Assembly: GCA_016203455.1 (NCBI GenBank)
Contig: JACQMR010000015.1
Coordinates: forward strand, 137-64,136
Direction: 5' to 3'
Source of the DNA: Candidatus Wildermuthbacteria bacterium
GTDB taxonomy: Bacteria > Patescibacteriota > Minisyncoccia > Minisyncoccales > UBA10102
DNA length: 64,000 nucleotides
Under the pieces are notes generated by a model. It did no database searches. It had not been told where the DNA came from and saw nothing but the letters and a program-made list of their open reading frames with translations. A program made the translations under genes and the position numbers. Shown piece by piece: positions 2,844-21,521 of the stretch (its first letter is position 1; each line of letters begins with the position of its first letter).

Positions 2844-4018
2844 ACTTACACTTTCTGTGGAGAGAACATTATGTGGATTATCTTTGGGCGAGCAATGTTA
2901 CGGCGCAAGCGTACTTTTTGCATAGCGGCGTGTTGCTTTATGAAGATGGTGTTTTGACCGCCTATGCCTCTGATCAAGAATTAAAAACAGTTCAGAAGAC
3001 GACCGCTCATCTCATAAAAAATCCAAAGAAGATACTGCAGCTTAAAAAGGAATTTCAAAAGATGCGAGAAAAGACAAACAAAATGTCTCCTCGTTATACA
3101 AAGCAAAATATACAAAAAGTCGCAAGCAAAGAGCTGTATAAGTTATTCCTTGAGTTGCTATCTCTCATTCAGGAAATGATAGTGACCTACCGGCTTACGG
3201 AGCCGCACTTTGTTAAGCATATTGAAGAGATGGCCTTGAATGCCGTGCATTCCAAGCTAGTACACTACAAAAATCCGGGAAAACTTTTTTCGCGCATAGT
3301 AGCAGACAAAAGCTGCCTTCTTTCCAAAAAATACGGAATCGACACAGAAGGATTAAAGCTGATAAAGCTTATGCATCGCGTTGCCCAAATGCGCTTTAAG
3401 GCAAAACGGACGAGTTTTTCTGTTGGCGATTATGCCGAATTGCTCTTGCGAGAAACAGCTAGAAGAACATATCTTGCAATTCCACAAGTATCAAATTTAC
3501 AACTACAAGAGCTTAAATCCCTACTTCTTGAAGGCAAAGAGCCGAATTTAACATCAGTCAATAAAAGACAGAAAAATTTCGCGCTTAAAATATGTATGGC
3601 GGAATCCCCGCATGCGAAAGAAGTGTCAAATACGGAACTCCAGAATCTCATTCGTTATGAACGCGATCAATCCCGGGTAACTTCTTTCAAAGGGTCAATA
3701 GCCTATCCAGGAAAAGTGGTGGGCGTGGCGCGTGTTTTGCCGCTCATATCAACAACTCACGAGTACAAACAATATATGTGTAGTCTTAAAAAAACGGATA
3801 TTCTCATTGCTCCCATGACCGCGCCAAGCCTCACGCGGGCATTTTCTATAGTCAAAGCAGTGGTGACTGACGAAGGGGGATTAATGTCTCATGCATCCTT
3901 AATAGCAAGAGAAAAACAGATACCTTGTATTATTGGAACGAAAATCGCAACCCGTGCATTGCACGATGGAGATACAATAACAGTTGATGCAAATAGCGGC
4001 ATTGTAACAAAACATTAA
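2840..4018 (+). CDS. PEP-utilising-enzyme mobile (phosphohistidine swivel) domain protein with unassigned N-terminal ~280 aa
   Basis: C-terminus VTDEGGLMSHASLIAREKQIPCIIGT...DGDTITVDANSG matches the swivel His domain of PEP synthase/PPDK/rifampin phosphotransferase. Confidence 0.75.
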   Translation: MNLHFLWREHYVDYLWASNVTAQAYFLHSGVLLYEDGVLTAYASDQELKTVQKTTAHLIKNPKKILQLKKEFQKMREKTNKMSPRYTKQNIQKVASKELYKLFLELLSLIQEMIVTYRLTEPHFVKHIEEMALNAVHSKLVHYKNPGKLFSRIVADKSCLLSKKYGIDTEGLKLIKLMHRVAQMRFKAKRTSFSVGDYAELLLRETARRTYLAIPQVSNLQLQELKSLLLEGKEPNLTSVNKRQKNFALKICMAESPHAKEVSNTELQNLIRYERDQSRVTSFKGSIAYPGKVVGVARVLPLISTTHEYKQYMCSLKKTDILIAPMTAPSLTRAFSIVKAVVTDEGGLMSHASLIAREKQIPCIIGTKIATRALHDGDTITVDANSGIVTKH

Positions 4019-4028
4019 AAAACTATCT

Positions 4029-4964
4029 ATGTTTACGGTCGCATTAGAGCAAAAAAATATTAACCGTGAAGCCCTCAAACATATAGGAGGAAAAGCCCTT
4101 CCGCTTTTTGAGTTGCGCGTATATAAAATTCCTGTACCAAAGGGGTTTGCAATAACCACGAAAGCATACGGCCTTTTCTTAGAAGCAAACGGCATCACAA
4201 ATGACATAAAAAAGCTTTCTCAAGTGAAATCTCATCCTGCTATTCAAAAAAAAGTAGCAAAAATCAGGAATTCTATTCTTAATGGCAATATCCCAAAAGA
4301 GATGGAGTTTGAGCTACATGACCGCCTTGCGCAGTACGGATTAAAACACTATGTGGTAAGATCCTCGGCAAATGTGGAAGATGCGGGCACAAAATCATGG
4401 GCCGGCGCGTTTGAGAGTTATTTGAATATCCCGCAAAAAGATGTTCTCAGCGCTGTAAAACAATGCTGGGCTTCTGTATTTAATGACAGGGTTATCCATT
4501 ACATAAACAATATAAAGCGGCTTGCGTCCATAAAAATGGCTGTAATCGTTCAAGAATATATCGACAGCGATATCTCGGGCGTATGCTTTACCAGAAACCC
4601 CCTTGACTCAAAAGATAACAATATCTTGATAGAAGCAGTGTTCGGGCTCGGAGAACTTCTTGTTCAGGGCGAAATAATACCAGACAAATATAAAGTAGAG
4701 CGGGAGAGCAACATTATTCTTGAGGCTGATGTGCAAGAACAAAACAGAGCTACCAAGGCAGCAAAAAACAGCGGTACAAAATTGGTATCCATGCAAAAAA
4801 GTTTGAAACAAAAACTCTCTGGAAGACAAATCATCGAGTTGGCAAATATAGCTCAAAAAATAGAGCGCATTCACGGCAAAGGGTGCGATATTGAGTGGTG
4901 CAGAAAAGATGATGTATTCTATATTGTACAATCTCGGCCCATTACTACTAATCGGAAAAGATAG
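4029..4964 (+). CDS. PEP/pyruvate-binding (PPDK_N, ATP-grasp) domain protein
   Basis: GGKALPLFEL, VVRSSANVEDAGTKSWAGAFESYLN, MAVIVQEYI, DIEW... typical of the N-terminal nucleotide-binding domain of PEP synthase family. Confidence 0.75.
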   Translation: MFTVALEQKNINREALKHIGGKALPLFELRVYKIPVPKGFAITTKAYGLFLEANGITNDIKKLSQVKSHPAIQKKVAKIRNSILNGNIPKEMEFELHDRLAQYGLKHYVVRSSANVEDAGTKSWAGAFESYLNIPQKDVLSAVKQCWASVFNDRVIHYINNIKRLASIKMAVIVQEYIDSDISGVCFTRNPLDSKDNNILIEAVFGLGELLVQGEIIPDKYKVERESNIILEADVQEQNRATKAAKNSGTKLVSMQKSLKQKLSGRQIIELANIAQKIERIHGKGCDIEWCRKDDVFYIVQSRPITTNRKR

Positions 4965-5311
4965 TACACAGGTTAAATTGACGAGATACCATATTTATGG
5001 CAAAAAACTACTGCCTACTCATGAAGAGTGGGGTTCTTTGTATAGAGATGCTGATTGGAGAGGACGCATTTTTTAAAACAAGGGAAGAAATTGGAAAAAG
5101 CTCATCTCTTCGGGAGATTCTGACAGGATTTACATGAAAAAAAGAATCTCCGAATGAAACGCGAGACAATACGCCTATCCAGTGTCTCATTTGTCTTGTC
5201 CTAGTAGTAGAACTTCGTTCACTGGGGGACAGGTTTTGTGCTAAAATAGACCCGACCGAGACGGGTCAGGGGAGTATCCTTTAAAGTCCTCAAAATCCCT
5301 CTTATGCAGGA

Positions 5312-16672: not shown

Positions 16673-18130
16673 ATGAACATTCATTTTATCGGCATAGGAG
16701 GAATAGGAATATCCGCGCTCGCCAAATACTATCTCGCCAAAGGATGGAAGGTTTCGGGGTGCGATCTTTCATCGTCTGAAATAACGGATCAGCTAAAAAC
16801 CCTGGGCGCGTCCATACGCATTGGACAGCCCGACCCCTCATGCGTCTCGCCCGACACTAATATGGTCGTTCACACGCCCGCAGTCCCTCCAATGCATCCT
16901 GAGATATTACAAGCTAAAAACTATAAACTGCAACCGAAAACCTATCCTCAAGCGCTTGGAGAACTCACCAAGGAGCACTTCACCATTACAGTGTCTGGAT
17001 GCCACGGCAAAAGCACCACAACCGCCATGGTAGGCCTCCTGCTGATGAAAGCGGGGCTCAACCCGACCATTATCGTTGGCACAAAAATAAAAGAACTCGG
17101 CAACAGCAACTTTCGCATGGGCGGAGAGCCAACCACAAATAACCAACAACGAATAACGAATAACAAAGTGCTGATTACAAGCTACCCTTCGACACTGCTC
17201 AGGGTAAACCAACGACAAACTACAAACTATCTGGTCATTGAAGCGGACGAACACTTTTCCTCATTTTTAAATTACTCCCCGCGCATTGCCATAGTCACCA
17301 ATGTTGAAAGAGACCACTTGGATTTTTATAAAAACCTCGCGAACATTAAAAAGGCGTTCAAAACATATATCGCAAAGATCCCAAAAGAGGGGACTCTGGT
17401 GATAAACAAAGACGATAAAGAAGCAAAAACAATCGTGCCAAAACGCGCGCCATACGGCGTTGTTTGGTATTCAACCAAATCGGCAGACGCAAAAAAGCTT
17501 GGGCCAAATATGCGCCTCCCGGGAATCCACAACTTGTCTAACGCCATGGCCGCCCTGCAAGCGGCGCGACTGCTCAACATACCGGACAACATAAGTTTTG
17601 CCGCCCTTTCTTCATACAAAGGATCGTGGAGAAGGTTTGAGATATTTAAACTAAAAACCGCAAACAATGCGCCATACACCCTTGTTTCTGATTACGGGCA
17701 TCATCCCACGGAAATCCGCGCAACCTTGCAGGCGGCCAGGCAAAAATGGCCTCTCAACCCTGCCCGGGGCAAATCCAAAAACATCTGGCTGATTTTCCAG
17801 CCCCATCAGCACCAGCGCACATTTTTCTTATGGAAAGATTTTATAAAAACCCTTTCGTCTCTGCCCATACAAAAACTGGTGCTGTTGGACATTTTTGATG
17901 TAGCCGGAAGAGAAGAAACCGATATTAACAAAAAGGTGTCTTCCGCGAAATTACTCAAAGCGATTCAAAAGAAAAACCCCACATACGAAACACTGCGTAT
18001 TCCAACAACGCAGGAAGCAGAAATATATCTCAAAGAAAATATAAAGGGGGGCGAAATTGTATTGGTCATGGGCGCGGGAAACATTTACAACCTTGCCCTG
18101 CGGTTGACTCAAAATAAACCCTCCGATTAA
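16673..18130 (+). CDS. murC: UDP-N-acetylmuramate--L-alanine ligase, with a low-complexity in-frame insertion
   Basis: MNIHFIGIGGIGISALA, VSGCHGKSTTTAM, EADEH, DYGHHPTEI; start moved to 16673. Confidence 0.9.
   Translation: MNIHFIGIGGIGISALAKYYLAKGWKVSGCDLSSSEITDQLKTLGASIRIGQPDPSCVSPDTNMVVHTPAVPPMHPEILQAKNYKLQPKTYPQALGELTKEHFTITVSGCHGKSTTTAMVGLLLMKAGLNPTIIVGTKIKELGNSNFRMGGEPTTNNQQRITNNKVLITSYPSTLLRVNQRQTTNYLVIEADEHFSSFLNYSPRIAIVTNVERDHLDFYKNLANIKKAFKTYIAKIPKEGTLVINKDDKEAKTIVPKRAPYGVVWYSTKSADAKKLGPNMRLPGIHNLSNAMAALQAARLLNIPDNISFAALSSYKGSWRRFEIFKLKTANNAPYTLVSDYGHHPTEIRATLQAARQKWPLNPARGKSKNIWLIFQPHQHQRTFFLWKDFIKTLSSLPIQKLVLLDIFDVAGREETDINKKVSSAKLLKAIQKKNPTYETLRIPTTQEAEIYLKENIKGGEIVLVMGAGNIYNLALRLTQNKPSD
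17137..17168 (+). repeat. heptamer low-complexity repeat (AATAACN) inside murC coding sequence
   Basis: AAATAACCAACAACGAATAACGAATAACAAAG; same repeat type as 60058-60160 (opposite strand). Confidence 0.6.
18059..18114 (+). repeat. 56-bp direct repeat, copy 1 (murC 3' end)
   Basis: identical base for base to 18747-18802. Confidence 0.95.
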
Positions 18131-18145
18131 CATGCCGCATTTCAC

Positions 18146-18172
18146 ATCTGTGCAAGTCGGACTTGTACAGAT
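18146..18172. repeat. palindromic hairpin element, copy 3
   Basis: ATCTGTGCAAGTC-G-GACTTGTACAGAT; outer pair changed compensatorily relative to copy 2. Confidence 0.7.
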
Positions 18173-18204
18173 ACATGCTCGAACAAAGATAATATACAAG
18201 CATT

Positions 18205-18747
18205 ATGAAGAGAAACATCCAGACAAAATTACTACAAGTCAAGCCATTTCAAGAAACCCTCCGCGGCGGTTATTGCGGACCTGCAAGCTTAAAGATTGTG
18301 CTGGACTACTATGGGATGCGGAAAAGCGAAAAAGAAATCGCAAATCGTTGCGGACGAAATTCTAAACTTGGCACGGATGATATTTCGATCAAACGAGTCG
18401 CTGAATCTTACGGCCTAAAAGCAGAAATCAAGAACGAAGCAACCTTTGCCGACATTGAAAAATGGCTTACCAGAGGAATACCCGTTATCGTCAACTGGTT
18501 TACTCGCGGCCGATCCGACTATTCTGATTCAGAGATTGCAGACGGCCATTATTCAATTGTCATGGGATTAGATAAAAGCAACATTTATCTTCAAGATCCA
18601 GAAATTGGCGCCATGCGCGCGATCAAAAGAAATGATTTCTTGAGTGTTTGGTTTGATTTCAGAAAAGATTACATTACCTCATGGAAGGATATGATCCTTC
18701 GCCAGATAATCGCCGTATATCCCAAAACACACAAAGGAAAGAGATAG
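18205..18747 (+). CDS. C39-like (papain-fold) cysteine peptidase domain protein
   Basis: GYCGPASLKIVLDYYG (Cys), DGHYSIVMGLD (His), YLQDP (Asp). Confidence 0.7.
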   Translation: MKRNIQTKLLQVKPFQETLRGGYCGPASLKIVLDYYGMRKSEKEIANRCGRNSKLGTDDISIKRVAESYGLKAEIKNEATFADIEKWLTRGIPVIVNWFTRGRSDYSDSEIADGHYSIVMGLDKSNIYLQDPEIGAMRAIKRNDFLSVWFDFRKDYITSWKDMILRQIIAVYPKTHKGKR

Positions 18748-18802
18748 TATTGGTCATGGGCGCGGGAAACATTTACAACCTTGCCCTGCGGTTGACTCAA
18801 AA
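18747..18802 (+). repeat. 56-bp direct repeat, copy 2 (displaced murC 3' end fragment)
   Basis: identical to 18059-18114; the reading frame continues into a remnant resembling the tail of the 21624 ORF. Confidence 0.95.
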
Positions 18803-18976
18803 ACCGCAACCCTTTTCTCGCTTGCCGCAAAATTCTCCTCCCAGCGCGACATAAAAAGAAATCCCAATACGGTAGCGCCGCTTGCATCCCGCACCTCCGG
18901 AAGACCGGGGTTTTTGTGTATGGCATAAAGCTACTCTATCGCAAAGTGGCGCAAGGATATTGAGCCAATAAAAAAC

Positions 18977-19005
18977 TTGACATAAATAATAATCCATGCT
19001 AATAT
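18977..19005 (+). promoter_or_regulatory. sigma-70-like promoter TTGACA-17-TAATAT
   Basis: TTGACA 18977-18982, 17-nt spacer, TAATAT 19000-19005. Confidence 0.5.
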
Positions 19006-19043
19006 ATTTGTGCAATGTAGAGCAGTTCTTTGATACGGATTTC

Positions 19044-19133
19044 ATAGCGGCAAAGTGAACATTAGCCCAGATAGACTCAAGATTGTTGAATGATTGGAGC
19101 GAATAACAGAGTTAGTGTTCGCCTTGCCGCTAT
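19044..19133 (+). promoter_or_regulatory. long imperfect stem-loop in the leader of the 19406 ORF
   Basis: 19044-19065 pairs with 19112-19133 over 22 positions (1 mismatch, 3 G.U on the + strand). Confidence 0.4.
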
Positions 19134-19155
19134 AAAGTATTCCAGGTAGACCAAG

Positions 19156-19246
19156 GGGAAGCGTGCGTGTTTCACTGACGCGCACGCTTCCCTCCACAAT
19201 TCAGCTCTTCAGGAATGAAGGGCTGAACAGTGGAAAGTCCTTTCAA
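19156..19246 (+). repeat. 91-bp double-hairpin direct repeat, copy 1
   Basis: Hairpin A has a 14-bp stem 19156-19169/19179-19192 and loop TTTCACTGA. Hairpin B is 19194-19233 with a GGAA loop. 80 of 91 positions match copy 2 in my ungapped hand alignment. Confidence 0.85.
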
Positions 19247-19405
19247 ATATTCTTTCCTTCGGATGCAGAGTTCATACATTTATTTGTGGATTTTGTACCC
19301 GGAGGAAAGCTAATCTGTACGGGTCTGTGCGGTAAAATTTTAATGCCGCATAGCTGGCCTACAAGGCCACCAGCGAAAACTGGAACAGAACCTAGGAGGT
19401 TCAAA

Positions 19406-19978
19406 ATGGCCAATCAGTTTAAAGTTAATTTTCCGTTTCATATTCGTATGGGAGCAAATGTGGCGTACGCCGTCGCCGAGGAGGTCGCAGGCTCCCGCCC
19501 CGATCTCTTGTCTATTGGTGGGGAAATCCCCACCTTCAGGTTCCAAGGGGGGGTGGTGGTCAAGGTATACATGGTTAACCTTGACCAGTTCACGGAGTCC
19601 TGGCGGACTCCTCACAGTAAGGATTTCGTAGTAACGCACTGCGAAGTGCGTTACTATCCCCGCTGGGTAGCGGGGTACCCCGATGGGAACAAAGTCTCGG
19701 AGGTCTGGGGAGCCGAAAAGCTCCTCGATCTGAAGACTCGGCGGCAGTGGCATGATCCTCGGGTGGTCCATATCGCATCGATTAAGGGGAGCGTCGGCGT
19801 GTTTATCAACGCTGCCGCCGACACTGGATACATCTCGGTTGACCCCGAGAAGAACCAGGATGGTTATTCCATCCTGTATGACAAAGTAGAATACGCTCGG
19901 TTCGTCGAGGGTGACCTCGACAGGGCTAAGGAAGAGGCCCAAAAGCTACTTGACGGTCATTTGACCGTCAACGGTTAG
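19406..19978 (+). CDS. orphan hypothetical protein (190 aa), GC-rich relative to flanks
   Basis: AGGAGG RBS 7 nt before ATG 19406; no recognisable domain; the ORF-track start at 19163 runs through the non-coding hairpin repeat. Confidence 0.6.
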   Translation: MANQFKVNFPFHIRMGANVAYAVAEEVAGSRPDLLSIGGEIPTFRFQGGVVVKVYMVNLDQFTESWRTPHSKDFVVTHCEVRYYPRWVAGYPDGNKVSEVWGAEKLLDLKTRRQWHDPRVVHIASIKGSVGVFINAAADTGYISVDPEKNQDGYSILYDKVEYARFVEGDLDRAKEEAQKLLDGHLTVNG

Positions 19979-20056
19979 TTCGCTCAAAAAGAGCAACTAA
20001 TATCCAAAAAAGGAAAAAGGAATCGGTTCTATCCCGACCTTTCTCCTCCTATCAAT

Positions 20057-20147
20057 GGGAAGCGCGCGTGTTTCACTGACACGCCCGCTTCCCTCCACAA
20101 TTTAGTTCTTCAACAATGGAGGGCTGAACAGTGGAGAGTTCTTTGAA
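20057..20147 (+). repeat. 91-bp double-hairpin direct repeat, copy 2
   Basis: offset 901 bp from copy 1; same two hairpins (20057-20093, 20095-20134). Confidence 0.85.
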
Positions 20148-20194
20148 GCAGATTACTAGCGGCAAAGTGATCCTCCTCATTGTTTTCGCGGGCA

Positions 20195-20220
20195 GTTGCG
20201 CAAGTCGGATTTGCGCTAAC
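20195..20220. repeat. palindromic hairpin element, copy 4 (diverged)
   Basis: GTTGCGCAAGTC-G-GATTTGCGC(T)AAC; the T-A pair of other copies is replaced by C-G. Confidence 0.6.
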
Positions 20221-20228
20221 ACATGCTT

Positions 20229-21521
20229 TTATTTGCCTTTTCTAGAGGCAAGATACGCGCCGTTTAGTATGACGCCCTCTATAGATCGGATATGTGAAAT
20301 ATTTTTTAGCGGGTTCTTGCCAAGAAGCGCGAGATTCGCGATTTTCCCTTCTTGAATCGTTCCTAAATCAGAAAGCGCGTCAAGAAATAACGCCGCGTTA
20401 TATGTTGCCGCCTCCAATGCTTGATGCGGCTGCAATCCGGAATCAACAAGAAGTTCTAACTCCTCAAAGAGCGAAACGCCGGGAATGACAAACGGATTTG
20501 GAGTGTCAGACCCCGCGAGAATAATGCTGTGTTTCCAGAGAAACGGAAGAATGCGGCGAACGCGTTCGCTCACAACGCCTGAATTTTTAAAATAGAGAGG
20601 CGGCAGACCCTTAATATACGCTAAACTTTGAGAATGATTCGGGCTCCACTCAACATTTCTGTAATGGTCAGGGAGAAGAGCCGCTTCCTTGCTGTGCCGG
20701 AGTTTGGAATAATCGGCGAGCTGGGACAGTTTTTTATCCACGACAAGAGTGGGGCATAAAAACACCCGTCTTTTCTTGAGCGACAAACCCAATTCCTTTA
20801 CCTTGGCTCTGTCTATTTTCACATCAATAAATCTCCTATATTCAGGATAATTTTTCAAACGAGCGTCTACGGCAATAAGACGGCCCATGATGTGCGCGCT
20901 CACATCGGACATATGCTCAAACCCGTCCTGGCCCATTTCCACGGCTTTTTTAATGCCTACGGATTCCGGAATATGCCCTGTTACCTTGAGACCTTGCGCA
21001 TGAGCTTCTCTAAGAATAGCCGCGTGCACTTCCGGTTTAAGCGTATGATACACCTTAATAAAATCCGCCCCTTGACGCTTTAACTCCTTTACGGCAGATA
21101 CGCCTTCTTTTTTATTCTTTACCACGCGAAACCCCTTCCACAACGGGGGGTCGCCTTCCAAAATCGGGCCCGCGATAAACACGCGGGGACCAAGAATTTT
21201 CCCCGCGTTTATTTGATTTCTCCACAAAAATATCTCTTTTTTGGAATTTCCCATTTCTCTAATGGCGGTAACGCCGCATTGAAGAAAAAGAGAAAGAAAA
21301 TCTTTTGACTCCAGATGCGCGTGCATGTCAAAAAGACCGGGAATAAGAAACTTTCCCGTTCCGTTAATAACGCGGCCCGCGAATTTTTCATTCTTTTGAT
21401 CTCTTGAAGGAAAAATCTTTGTTACGCGCGCTCCCTCAATCAAAACATCATACCCGCGCAATACGCGGGGACCCGGCATCGGGATGATATTCACATGCTT
21501 AATAAGAATAGATGATGTCAT
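20229..21521 (-). CDS. amidohydrolase family metallo-hydrolase
   Basis: GLFDMHAHL (HxH), later His/Asp ligands (TGHIPE, GFEHM, AGSDTP) typical of the amidohydrolase superfamily. Confidence 0.85.
   Translation of the reverse strand: MTSSILIKHVNIIPMPGPRVLRGYDVLIEGARVTKIFPSRDQKNEKFAGRVINGTGKFLIPGLFDMHAHLESKDFLSLFLQCGVTAIREMGNSKKEIFLWRNQINAGKILGPRVFIAGPILEGDPPLWKGFRVVKNKKEGVSAVKELKRQGADFIKVYHTLKPEVHAAILREAHAQGLKVTGHIPESVGIKKAVEMGQDGFEHMSDVSAHIMGRLIAVDARLKNYPEYRRFIDVKIDRAKVKELGLSLKKRRVFLCPTLVVDKKLSQLADYSKLRHSKEAALLPDHYRNVEWSPNHSQSLAYIKGLPPLYFKNSGVVSERVRRILPFLWKHSIILAGSDTPNPFVIPGVSLFEELELLVDSGLQPHQALEAATYNAALFLDALSDLGTIQEGKIANLALLGKNPLKNISHIRSIEGVILNGAYLASRKGK

Follow-up and report, generated by a model that had tools for sequence, protein, structure and literature searches.

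Genes flanked by ribozymes have been known since 2011: in other bacteria, individual genes lie between several hammerheads, which process the polycistronic RNA both in vivo and in vitro (Perreault et al. 2011, PMC3088659). What hammerheads and other small ribozymes encoded in bacterial genomes do biologically is largely unsettled, and unrelated ribozyme classes share the same gene neighborhoods (PMC6765202). We analyzed a 64-kb stretch of DNA (the window) from a Candidatus Wildermuthbacteria bacterium, a member of the candidate phyla radiation (CPR; Patescibacteria), and describe a cassette in which two direct repeats, termed R (copies R1 and R2), bracket an open reading frame (ORF) for a 190-amino acid protein, ORF190. 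The locus is chromosomal DNA between murC and hutI on a 65-kb contig.

As in the clustered hammerheads of Perreault et al. (PMC3088659), same-orientation structured RNAs here bracket small uncharacterized genes in a polycistronic unit. A textbook case of such an array, with three type III hammerheads, one per cistron, is found in L011 (labels of this kind denote related contigs that were compared with the window). The window element differs from these arrays in that it has no hammerhead core or known ribozyme signature, lies in a CPR chromosome with no recognizable prophage genes, and embeds the ribozyme slot in a longer conserved leader grammar. Our comparison points to three new elements: a conserved module in the ribozyme slot that is not a ribozyme (or not yet recognized as one), a shared leader grammar with a hairpin that would sequester the Shine-Dalgarno (SD) sequence, and an associated uncharacterized protein family, all in CPR bacteria.

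Two phage systems are also comparable. Early mRNA of phage T7 contains irregular hairpins with internal loops between its cistrons, and cleavage by RNase III gives the upstream mRNA a protective 3′ hairpin. In general shape, hairpin B of R (4–5 bp, a 2×2 or 2×3 internal loop, 12 bp, and a tetraloop) is similar to these sites; the likeness is one of shape only, with no sequence relationship. The PeSL elements of T4-type phages, reported by Arbiol et al. (2010), are mobile regulatory cassettes in which a promoter and stem-loop repeats flank small ORFs, and in plastic regions such repeats can reportedly mediate gene shuffling by recombination. R differs from PeSL in sequence, structure, and its non-phage setting, and no minicircles are documented here.

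The repeat module

The two repeats (coordinates in Table 1) are 87% identical over 95 nt at a spacing of 901, and no third copy occurs in the window, where the number expected by chance is 0. Each copy folds into the same two abutting hairpins, A and B (z is −9.8 for R1 and −7.0 for R2). A preliminary description of this DNA had reported two 91-bp direct repeats identical at 80 of 91 positions, which our alignment reproduces. In R1, hairpin B has the layout CCAC-AA-12 bp-GGAA-12 bp-CA-GUGG. We define the R motif as a hairpin A of 12–16 bp that abuts a hairpin B, whose base has 5 bp, whose 5′ side bears an AA internal loop, and whose upper stem has 12 bp; an AAG..YUU..AA tail comes next, and the whole lies in sense orientation at a cassette boundary. 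All of these features are present in both window copies and at L012 1224–1318, L014 1601–1714, L014 72–167, and L018 931–1026.

A covariance model built from the two window copies alone finds full-length matches on the plus strand at L012 1224–1318 (33 bits, E is 6e-7) and L014 1601–1714 (29 bits), both located downstream of a two-gene cassette. A broader R model, which includes these two matches, adds L014 72–167 and L018 931–1026 (∼30 bits, E ∼1e-6), which lie upstream of the same two-gene cassette. L014 carries R copies on both sides, and its ORF-A + ORF-B cassette is therefore bracketed by R modules as well; R-like modules thus bracket the cassette in a second, independent locus. The broader model also returns a weak match at L014 2127–2189, directly followed by a box and 5′ arm (2187–2229) that are 84% identical to window positions 19023–19065. 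A box-like tail and CGCGGCAAGCAC come after the R module in both L012 and L014.

In an alignment of five R sequences, 96% of the cells are paired and 21 of 33 pairs have changed on both sides, compared with 39–48% pairing in slid controls; one U.G pair is invariant in all five. Pairing is strand-specific: in the four-sequence alignment A8 it reaches 97.5% on the plus strand versus 86% on the minus strand, with 16 G.U cells on the former and 2 would-be G.U cells on the latter. Conserved unpaired positions are few and comprise CAA before hairpin A, the AA internal loop of hairpin B, and the AAG..YUU..AA tail.

The two window copies on their own are weak evidence for selection on structure. R1 and R2 differ at 12 positions, 6 of 62 paired and 6 of 33 unpaired. 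The preliminary description had noted four stem substitutions that preserve pairing on the plus strand, and these are indeed present; it had overlooked the remaining two of the six stem changes (19164 T>C and 19184 A>C), which replace a U-A pair in hairpin A with C.C. The evidence from the window is weak because these two changes break a pair. The proposal that R is a strand-specific structured RNA rather than a neutral duplication is supported by the comparative data, that is by recurrence of R with compensatory pairing in the three unrelated metagenome contigs L012, L014, and L018, by the 21 of 33 compensatory pairs, and by the excess of plus-strand G.U cells. Taken together, sequence comparison defines R as a previously undescribed RNA module of two hairpins, evolutionarily conserved and encoded on the plus strand, which lies between small uncharacterized genes of these ultra-small bacteria.

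R matches no described RNA family. A cmscan search with all Rfam 15 models, including the self-cleaving ribozymes twister, twister-sister, pistol, hatchet, HDV-like, hairpin, and glmS, returned no plus-strand match at E ≤ 5 in window positions 18000–20600, and no Rfam match was found at the R-like modules of L012, L014, and L018. Across the window and 15 related loci, scanned at gathering and at permissive thresholds, the Rfam matches were limited to a tRNA, an L10 leader, and, below gathering, the hammerhead of L011. A search for the hammerhead pattern CTGANGA..GAAA gave no plus-strand match within the window element, hairpin B having just CUGA-ACA between its stems. We rejected a hammerhead-like pattern on the minus strand of R1 (CUGAAGA..GAAA), which would need a melted hairpin A, is degraded in R2, and occurs at chance frequency (3 found versus 5.8 expected).

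The hammerhead array and the shared leader

In L011, the ORF homologous to ORF190 (3569–4159) is flanked by direct repeats containing CUGAUGA-GUCCGAAAGGAC-GAAA, which Rfam calls as a type III hammerhead (E is 0.007, below gathering). A full repeat scan of this contig reveals three hammerheads in the same orientation (3323–3373, 4248–4298, and 5146–5196), one after each of three consecutive, mutually unrelated ORFs. The 11 core nucleotides and the UH site are invariant across the three copies, and 15 of 15 stem pairs form in all of them, 9 with compensatory changes (pairing in slid controls is 20–49%); successive copies differ in the sequence of stem III. These are functional-looking ribozymes that would be expected to cut polycistronic RNA into single-gene pieces. 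L011 thus has the feature of Perreault-type arrays, at least two self-cleaving ribozymes of the same orientation flanking single genes or short gene blocks; the flanking elements in the window share the slot and orientation of the L011 ribozymes and have no recognizable ribozyme core. The L011 array (2848–5261) contains ORFs of 142, 196, and ∼200 amino acids, each followed by a conserved tail GGCUUAGGCUUUACA, a variable hairpin, and a hammerhead, and none of these three ORFs has a match in Pfam, PHROG, or PADLOC. A pattern combining hammerhead and box gave 120 matches in IMG/VR, none with a stem II, all of which we consider chance.

The intergenic order in L011 is stop codon, short conserved tail, variable hairpin, hammerhead, box GUUCUUUACAA, ∼25-bp hairpin, four small hairpins, and start codon, the last of the small hairpins being predicted to sequester the SD sequence. 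In the window, a promoter, box 0, and a long stem are followed by hairpins A and B of R1; then come box 1, a long mid hairpin, the small hairpins H0–H3, and ORF190, and finally hairpins A and B of R2, box 2, and the 5′ arm of a next long stem. The order of modules is the same in both, with hairpin B in the position of the hammerhead. The flanks of this slot are alike, too: each has an upstream hairpin, a 4-bp closing helix (CCAA/UUGG in L011, CCAC/GUGG in the window), and a downstream box, GAGUUCUUU. A 13-nt exact match, UGGAGAGUUCUUU, is shared by R2 and L011 hammerhead HH2. From this correspondence we read R as one slot of a fixed intergenic layout, in which the hairpin B position is taken in L011 by a canonical type III hammerhead.

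The sequence of box 0 recurs after hammerheads HH1 and HH2 of L011 and also at L011 2632, L001 2643, and L014 2188. Further exact copies in the window (30152 and 57287) lie inside coding regions and were discarded as chance matches. In L001, a stand-alone homologous gene is headed by the same arrangement, CTTGACA-17-TGCTAtATT plus box, so that the box stands shortly after a promoter resembling that of the window. The box is therefore a 5′-proximal leader element, and cleavage by a hammerhead immediately 5′ of it would imitate the start of a transcript.

The proximal leader (19325–19402) is nearly identical in L012 and L014. Independent single-sequence folds indicate that a leader of small hairpins recurs across the protein family with different sequences. 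H1 is found as UGGCCU/AGGCCA, GAGACU/AGUCUC, and GAGGCU/AGCCUC, and H3, the SD hairpin, which is the most consistent part, as GAACCU-AGG-AGGUUC (the window version, predicted to sequester the SD sequence), GCUCUU-AAG-GAGAGC, UCAUCCU-AGG-AGGAUGA, and AAACCUU-AAG-GAGGUUU. The leader grammar also precedes unrelated ORFs (L011 ORF226 and L014 ORF-B) and has a single occurrence in the window; it therefore belongs to the cassette class and not to the host genome or to one gene. A pattern for leader hairpins H1–H2 had no match in IMG/VR.

A different direct repeat of 90 nt brackets the homologous ORF in L030 (3–92 and 1351–1440; 98% identity, spacing 1348). Its fold is a three-way junction with a closing stem of 14 bp (z about −7). 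It lacks a hammerhead core, and neither Rfam nor the R model gives a match to it.

The ORF190 protein family

The preliminary description had regarded ORF190 as an orphan. We find 11 close homologs (46–62% identity) among 5.8 billion proteins, including an NCBI record from the same Candidatus Wildermuthbacteria metagenome-assembled genome, and a profile search extends the family to ∼90 clusters at 50% identity. ORF190 has no relatives in GTDB representative genomes or IMG/VR and no match in phage or plasmid collections. On different contigs the homologs adjoin unrelated housekeeping genes (leuS, rplL, recO, and rpsO; murC and hutI in the window), and we conclude that the gene moves between contexts. 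The family is rare, uncharacterized, and found in varied CPR genomic contexts.

ORF190 is a coding gene, with 52 columns invariant across 10 close homologs; basic residues at conserved positions are R14, R31, R67, R82, K96, R113, R165, and R173. Its GC content is 0.53–0.57, compared with 0.42–0.47 in the flanks. An AF2 model of the protein is confident (pLDDT 83) and alpha/beta, yet Foldseek detects no significant fold match in PDB or BFVD; the top matches (polo-box and single-stranded RNA-phage coat proteins) have TM scores <0.2 and are meaningless. Sequence profiles from Pfam, PHROGs, PADLOC, NCBIfam, and PDB return no match either, so the preliminary statement that the element belongs to no described family holds for the protein as it does for the RNA.

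The NCBI annotation (HY482_02660) starts the protein at Met15, giving 176 amino acids. The start at 19406 is supported over this shorter version, because the family has conserved N-terminal residues and the AGGAGG lies within the SD hairpin. A 200-amino acid antisense ORF (19340–19942, minus strand) was rejected as a gene, its BLAST "homologs" being antisense frames of homologous genes; it is a by-product of the GC-rich coding strand.

Several family proteins are variants in domain architecture (P0004, P0005, P0012, P0016, P0020, P0031, and P0013). Part of the family carries a conserved C-terminal extension of ∼65 amino acids (AVAVFYN.P.GEAY..D.P.GNYKGSGHHPF...EYPYD), and two members have long N-terminal fusions; P0031 has the domain a second time, in degenerate form. 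In L021, a perfect palindrome, AAATGTTCCACGTGGAACAATTT, is repeated at least six times upstream of the family ORF (1504–1583 and 2000–2731); it could be an operator or a REP-like repeat. Downstream of a distant family member in L026, which comes from the same organism as L025, a dense repeat field (1595–2879) is composed of units with a period of ∼322 nt and a run of 34-nt tandem repeats (TGCAATGGCTGCGGGATGACGGGGTCGCCGCGTA).

Role of the module

R1 and R2 are two copies of a conserved RNA module in a standard architecture. We lean toward reading this module as a "punctuation" signal for RNA processing or stability in a CPR cassette array, and consider this somewhat better than an even bet. The module probably marks where a long RNA gets cut or stabilized, because a related array has a self-cutting hammerhead in the same place. 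Among the readings offered in the preliminary description, that of processing or regulatory modules around a cassette gene is the one favored by these hammerheads.

The architecture is used by small gene cassettes of one family that are shuffled horizontally in CPR genomes. Each unit, read 5′ to 3′ in sense orientation, consists of the previous stop codon, the stable hairpin A, the hairpin B element, the GUUCUUU box, a ∼25-bp hairpin, H0–H2, the SD-sequestering hairpin, and the ORF. In L011, the hammerheads would cut the polycistronic RNA such that each mRNA starts just upstream of the box and ends in hairpin A. The slot in the window holds an apparently non-catalytic hairpin with a conserved AA internal loop, which would mark the same boundaries. 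R may be cleaved by a host RNase specific for double strands (RNase III-like, as with the intercistronic hairpins of T7 early mRNA), or hairpin B may form, with the GC-rich hairpin A, an end structure that blocks 3′ or 5′ exonucleases. Either way, ORF190 would end up on a discrete and stable mRNA, with the SD hairpin gating its translation. The direct repeats would reflect an array of a unit 0 without an ORF, a unit 1 with ORF190, and a truncated unit 2, and could also supply homology for gain and loss of cassettes by recombination. Such an array accounts for the ORF-less, promoter-proximal unit (box 0 and long stem), for the restart of box and 5′ arm after R2 that ends at 20170, and for the homology to the duplicated hairpin downstream of murC, which resumes exactly there.

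Within one modular leader, the slot is filled in some loci by a conserved hairpin module that is not a hammerhead and in another by a canonical hammerhead, a natural series that offers a direct contrast between self-cleavage and cleavage by a host RNase or simple end protection. Should R not cleave itself, this would indicate that hammerheads in such arrays make defined, hairpin-capped monocistronic mRNAs; should it do so, R would be a new ribozyme class. In both cases, the locus contributes a candidate RNA motif, an SD-sequestering leader grammar, and a protein family, all specific to CPR bacteria, a group in which gene regulation has hardly been explored.

Several observations weigh against a punctuation signal. 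The R sequences were aligned by fitting them to the model and come from only about three independent lineages, and a strict three-anchor pattern for R finds no copy in GTDB representative genomes or IMG/VR. No known ribozyme core emerges in R from the Rfam and pattern searches. Hairpin B is equated with the hammerhead from order and flanks, without significant sequence similarity, and the R model scores L011 4219–4315 at only 9.5 bits (E is 1.8). Finally, the family members in L001, L007, L021, L024, and L028 have a plain promoter and terminator and no flanking repeat; the R module is therefore dispensable for the gene.

A DNA-level role is unlikely. The repeats would then act mainly as recombination substrates or as the ends of a non-autonomous mobile cassette, with RNA structure being secondary; variants of this idea invoke hairpins of top-strand single-stranded DNA, GCGGCAAAG motifs resembling terminal inverted repeats, and homologous-recombination modules of the PeSL kind. 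The cassette does occur in different contexts in different genomes, the window copy lies inside nested duplications downstream of murC with its right edge coinciding with the 14-nt arm copy at 20170, and 19119–19132 and 20157–20170 form an inverted pair (12 of 14 positions). Single-stranded DNA of the top strand also tolerates G.T pairs, so the strand asymmetry of R is compatible with a DNA-level role. However, the element encodes neither a transposase or integrase nor an HUH protein, ORF190 shows no signature of a nuclease or recombinase and no TnpA or TnpB domain, and no target-site duplication was seen. Elsewhere, an RNA enzyme occupies the slot, and the module always runs in the same sense as the ORFs, beside hairpins predicted to control translation. 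Elements associated with IS200/IS605 palindromes and integron attC sites likewise have hairpin-forming bounds around a passenger gene in variable contexts, but the window element lacks a Y1 transposase and IntI. Its two ends are the same module in direct orientation, in contrast to the distinct left and right subterminal hairpins of IS200/IS605 or PATE elements, and R is confined to one locus in the 64-kb window, with none in GTDB representatives or IMG/VR. Multi-copy dispersal, the one feature of the IS200/IS605-style reading in the preliminary description that was tested, is thus missing, and this reading is not supported. By inspection, the attC core sites R″ RYYYAAC and R′ GTTRRRY are absent from 19152–19246 and 20053–20147, and R is two separate hairpins rather than one imperfect palindrome.

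We think it rather improbable that R is an operator or packaging signal bound, without cleavage, by the 190-amino acid protein as an RNA-binding autoregulator. Every R-bearing locus found encodes the ORF190 family, and the protein is conserved, basic at conserved positions, and without a fold match; the SD hairpin already gates translation in this reading. Most family members have no R, however, the L011 slot is a ribozyme that also follows two unrelated ORFs, and structure searches of PDB and BFVD detected no RNA-binding fold.

R could also be a new class of self-cleaving ribozyme, the autonomous equivalent of the L011 hammerhead, which we judge improbable. Its active fold would comprise hairpins A and B, the AA internal loop, possibly a pseudoknot between loop A and the 3′ strand (UCACUG:CAGUGG), and the AAG..UU..AA tail. 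R occupies the same slot as a bona fide hammerhead of a homologous array and is conserved with covariation, and the same reasoning led to twister, pistol, and hatchet (PMC6765202). Since the unrelated L030 junction also brackets a homologous ORF, three unrelated RNAs would fill the slot, and R, possibly with the L030 junction, would be new ribozyme classes; this extension seems equally improbable. If true, the ORF190 family would be one of the long-sought "ribozyme-associated" gene families, whose biology explains why bacteria retain such ribozymes. Known small ribozymes have multi-helix junctions or pseudoknots and at least 10 invariant core positions, whereas R amounts to two plain hairpins in which very few unpaired nucleotides are conserved; covariation does not support the pseudoknot, and the sequences of loops A and B vary between lineages.

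That R is a decayed hammerhead relic, duplicated recently and locally and functionless today, is very improbable. Hairpin B can be aligned with a hammerhead devoid of its core (CCAC-AA-stem-CUGA-ACA-GUGG versus CCAA-UC-stem I-CUGAUGA-stem II-GAAA-UUGG), and in the window two of six stem substitutions break a pair, with only mild depletion of changes in stems. Yet the two-hairpin shape has been kept by compensatory changes over three lineages, with the U.G pair invariant, and covariation of hairpin B is seen in five sequences.

Excision of the unit between the repeats and its circularization to a coding circular RNA of ∼0.9–1.1 kb, similar to retrozymes, viroid-like RNAs, or Obelisks, is more doubtful still. 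The size of the unit (901–1113 nt, between direct repeats that in L011 carry type III hammerheads) and of the encoded protein (∼200 amino acids in Obelisks) would fit. The locus is chromosomal DNA, however, and the unit is not rod-like (median pair span is 22–24 nt, ∼5% of pairs span >200 nt). The differing stem III sequences of the L011 hammerheads imply that excised ends could not re-form a ribozyme for self-ligation, and the window repeats have no ribozyme core. The Obelisk protein Oblin-1 is largely helical, and the predicted alpha/beta fold of ORF190 would set it apart.

A pair of repeat-RNA antitoxin and ORF190 endoribonuclease toxin like the type III systems ToxIN, CptIN, and TenpIN, as suggested in the preliminary description, can be dismissed: a repeated structured RNA adjoins a small uncharacterized protein gene here as well, but the repeats flank the ORF 901 nt apart instead of forming a tandem array upstream, the protein matches neither ToxN, AbiQ, or CptN (Pfam, PADLOC) nor a Kid/MazF-like fold, and most homologs have no repeats.

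Layout of the locus

The region around the element was read directly, and positions 17900–20500 were scanned for promoters (Table 1).

Table 1. Coordinates of features in and around the ORF190 cassette
Feature	Position	Strand	Remarks
Terminator-like hairpin	18895–18910		Closes preceding unit
Sigma-70-type promoter of cassette, TTGACA-17-(TG)cTAATAT	18977–19005	+	10/12 matches, extended −10 TG
Box 0, AGTTCTTTGA	19024–19033	+	Conserved, near 5′ end of leader
Long stem-loop	19041–19136	+	Base GCGGCAAAG / CUUGCCGC resembles hairpin H0
R copy 1 (R1)	19152–19246	+	Hairpin A 19156–19192, hairpin B 19193–19234, degenerate box 19236–19246
Long "mid" hairpin	19251–19310	+	After box 1; counterpart of ∼25-bp post-box hairpins in L011 and L001
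Proximal leader, four hairpins	19325–19402	+	H0 19325–19353, H1 19355–19369, H2 19370–19383, H3 19388–19402
ORF190	19406–19978	+	190 amino acids, conserved uncharacterized protein family; AGGAGG + ATG 19406
R copy 2 (R2)	20053–20147	+	Hairpin A 20057–20093, hairpin B 20094–20135, box 2 20137–20146
Copy of 5′ arm, TAGCGGCAAAGTGA	20157–20170	+	Exact copy of 19045–19058

The individual features listed in the preliminary description were all located. Its TTGACA-17-TAATAT promoter is the top promoter-like site of the scanned interval. The long stem has 33-nt arms that are 76% complementary (minimum free energy is −35.8 kcal/mol, z is −5.6), and the structured leader, estimated there at ∼390 nt, is as a whole (400 nt) far more stable than shuffled sequences (z is −10.6). 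The AGGAGG and ATG ahead of a 190-amino acid ORF of elevated GC content are likewise in place. The second copy of the 5′ arm is exact and proves to be part of a longer, 35-nt terminal direct repeat that includes the GTTCTTTGA box (19024–19058 versus 20137–20170, one indel). We read this arm copy as the truncated start of a next unit; it forms the right edge of the segment inserted relative to the duplicated hairpin downstream of murC.

In L014 and L018 the long stem (L014 167–263) carries a GCGGCAAG-like motif on its 3′ arm, and in the window stem the motif is on the 5′ arm, so that the long stem appears inverted between the two lineages. In both, a same-sense copy of the motif recurs after the downstream R module.

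The 3′ side of murC contains further duplications. A duplicate of the final 79 nt of the murC-like gene lies 688 nt downstream (18036–18114 versus 18724–18802, with 56 nt at 100% identity), and an ORF for a 180-amino acid C39-type cysteine peptidase (18205–18747) sits between the two copies. A post-murC hairpin is duplicated 2048 nt downstream (18149–18179 versus 20197–20227), and the ORF190 element lies in the interval between the second murC-end copy and the second copy of this hairpin. The region looks like a hot spot with nested insertions.

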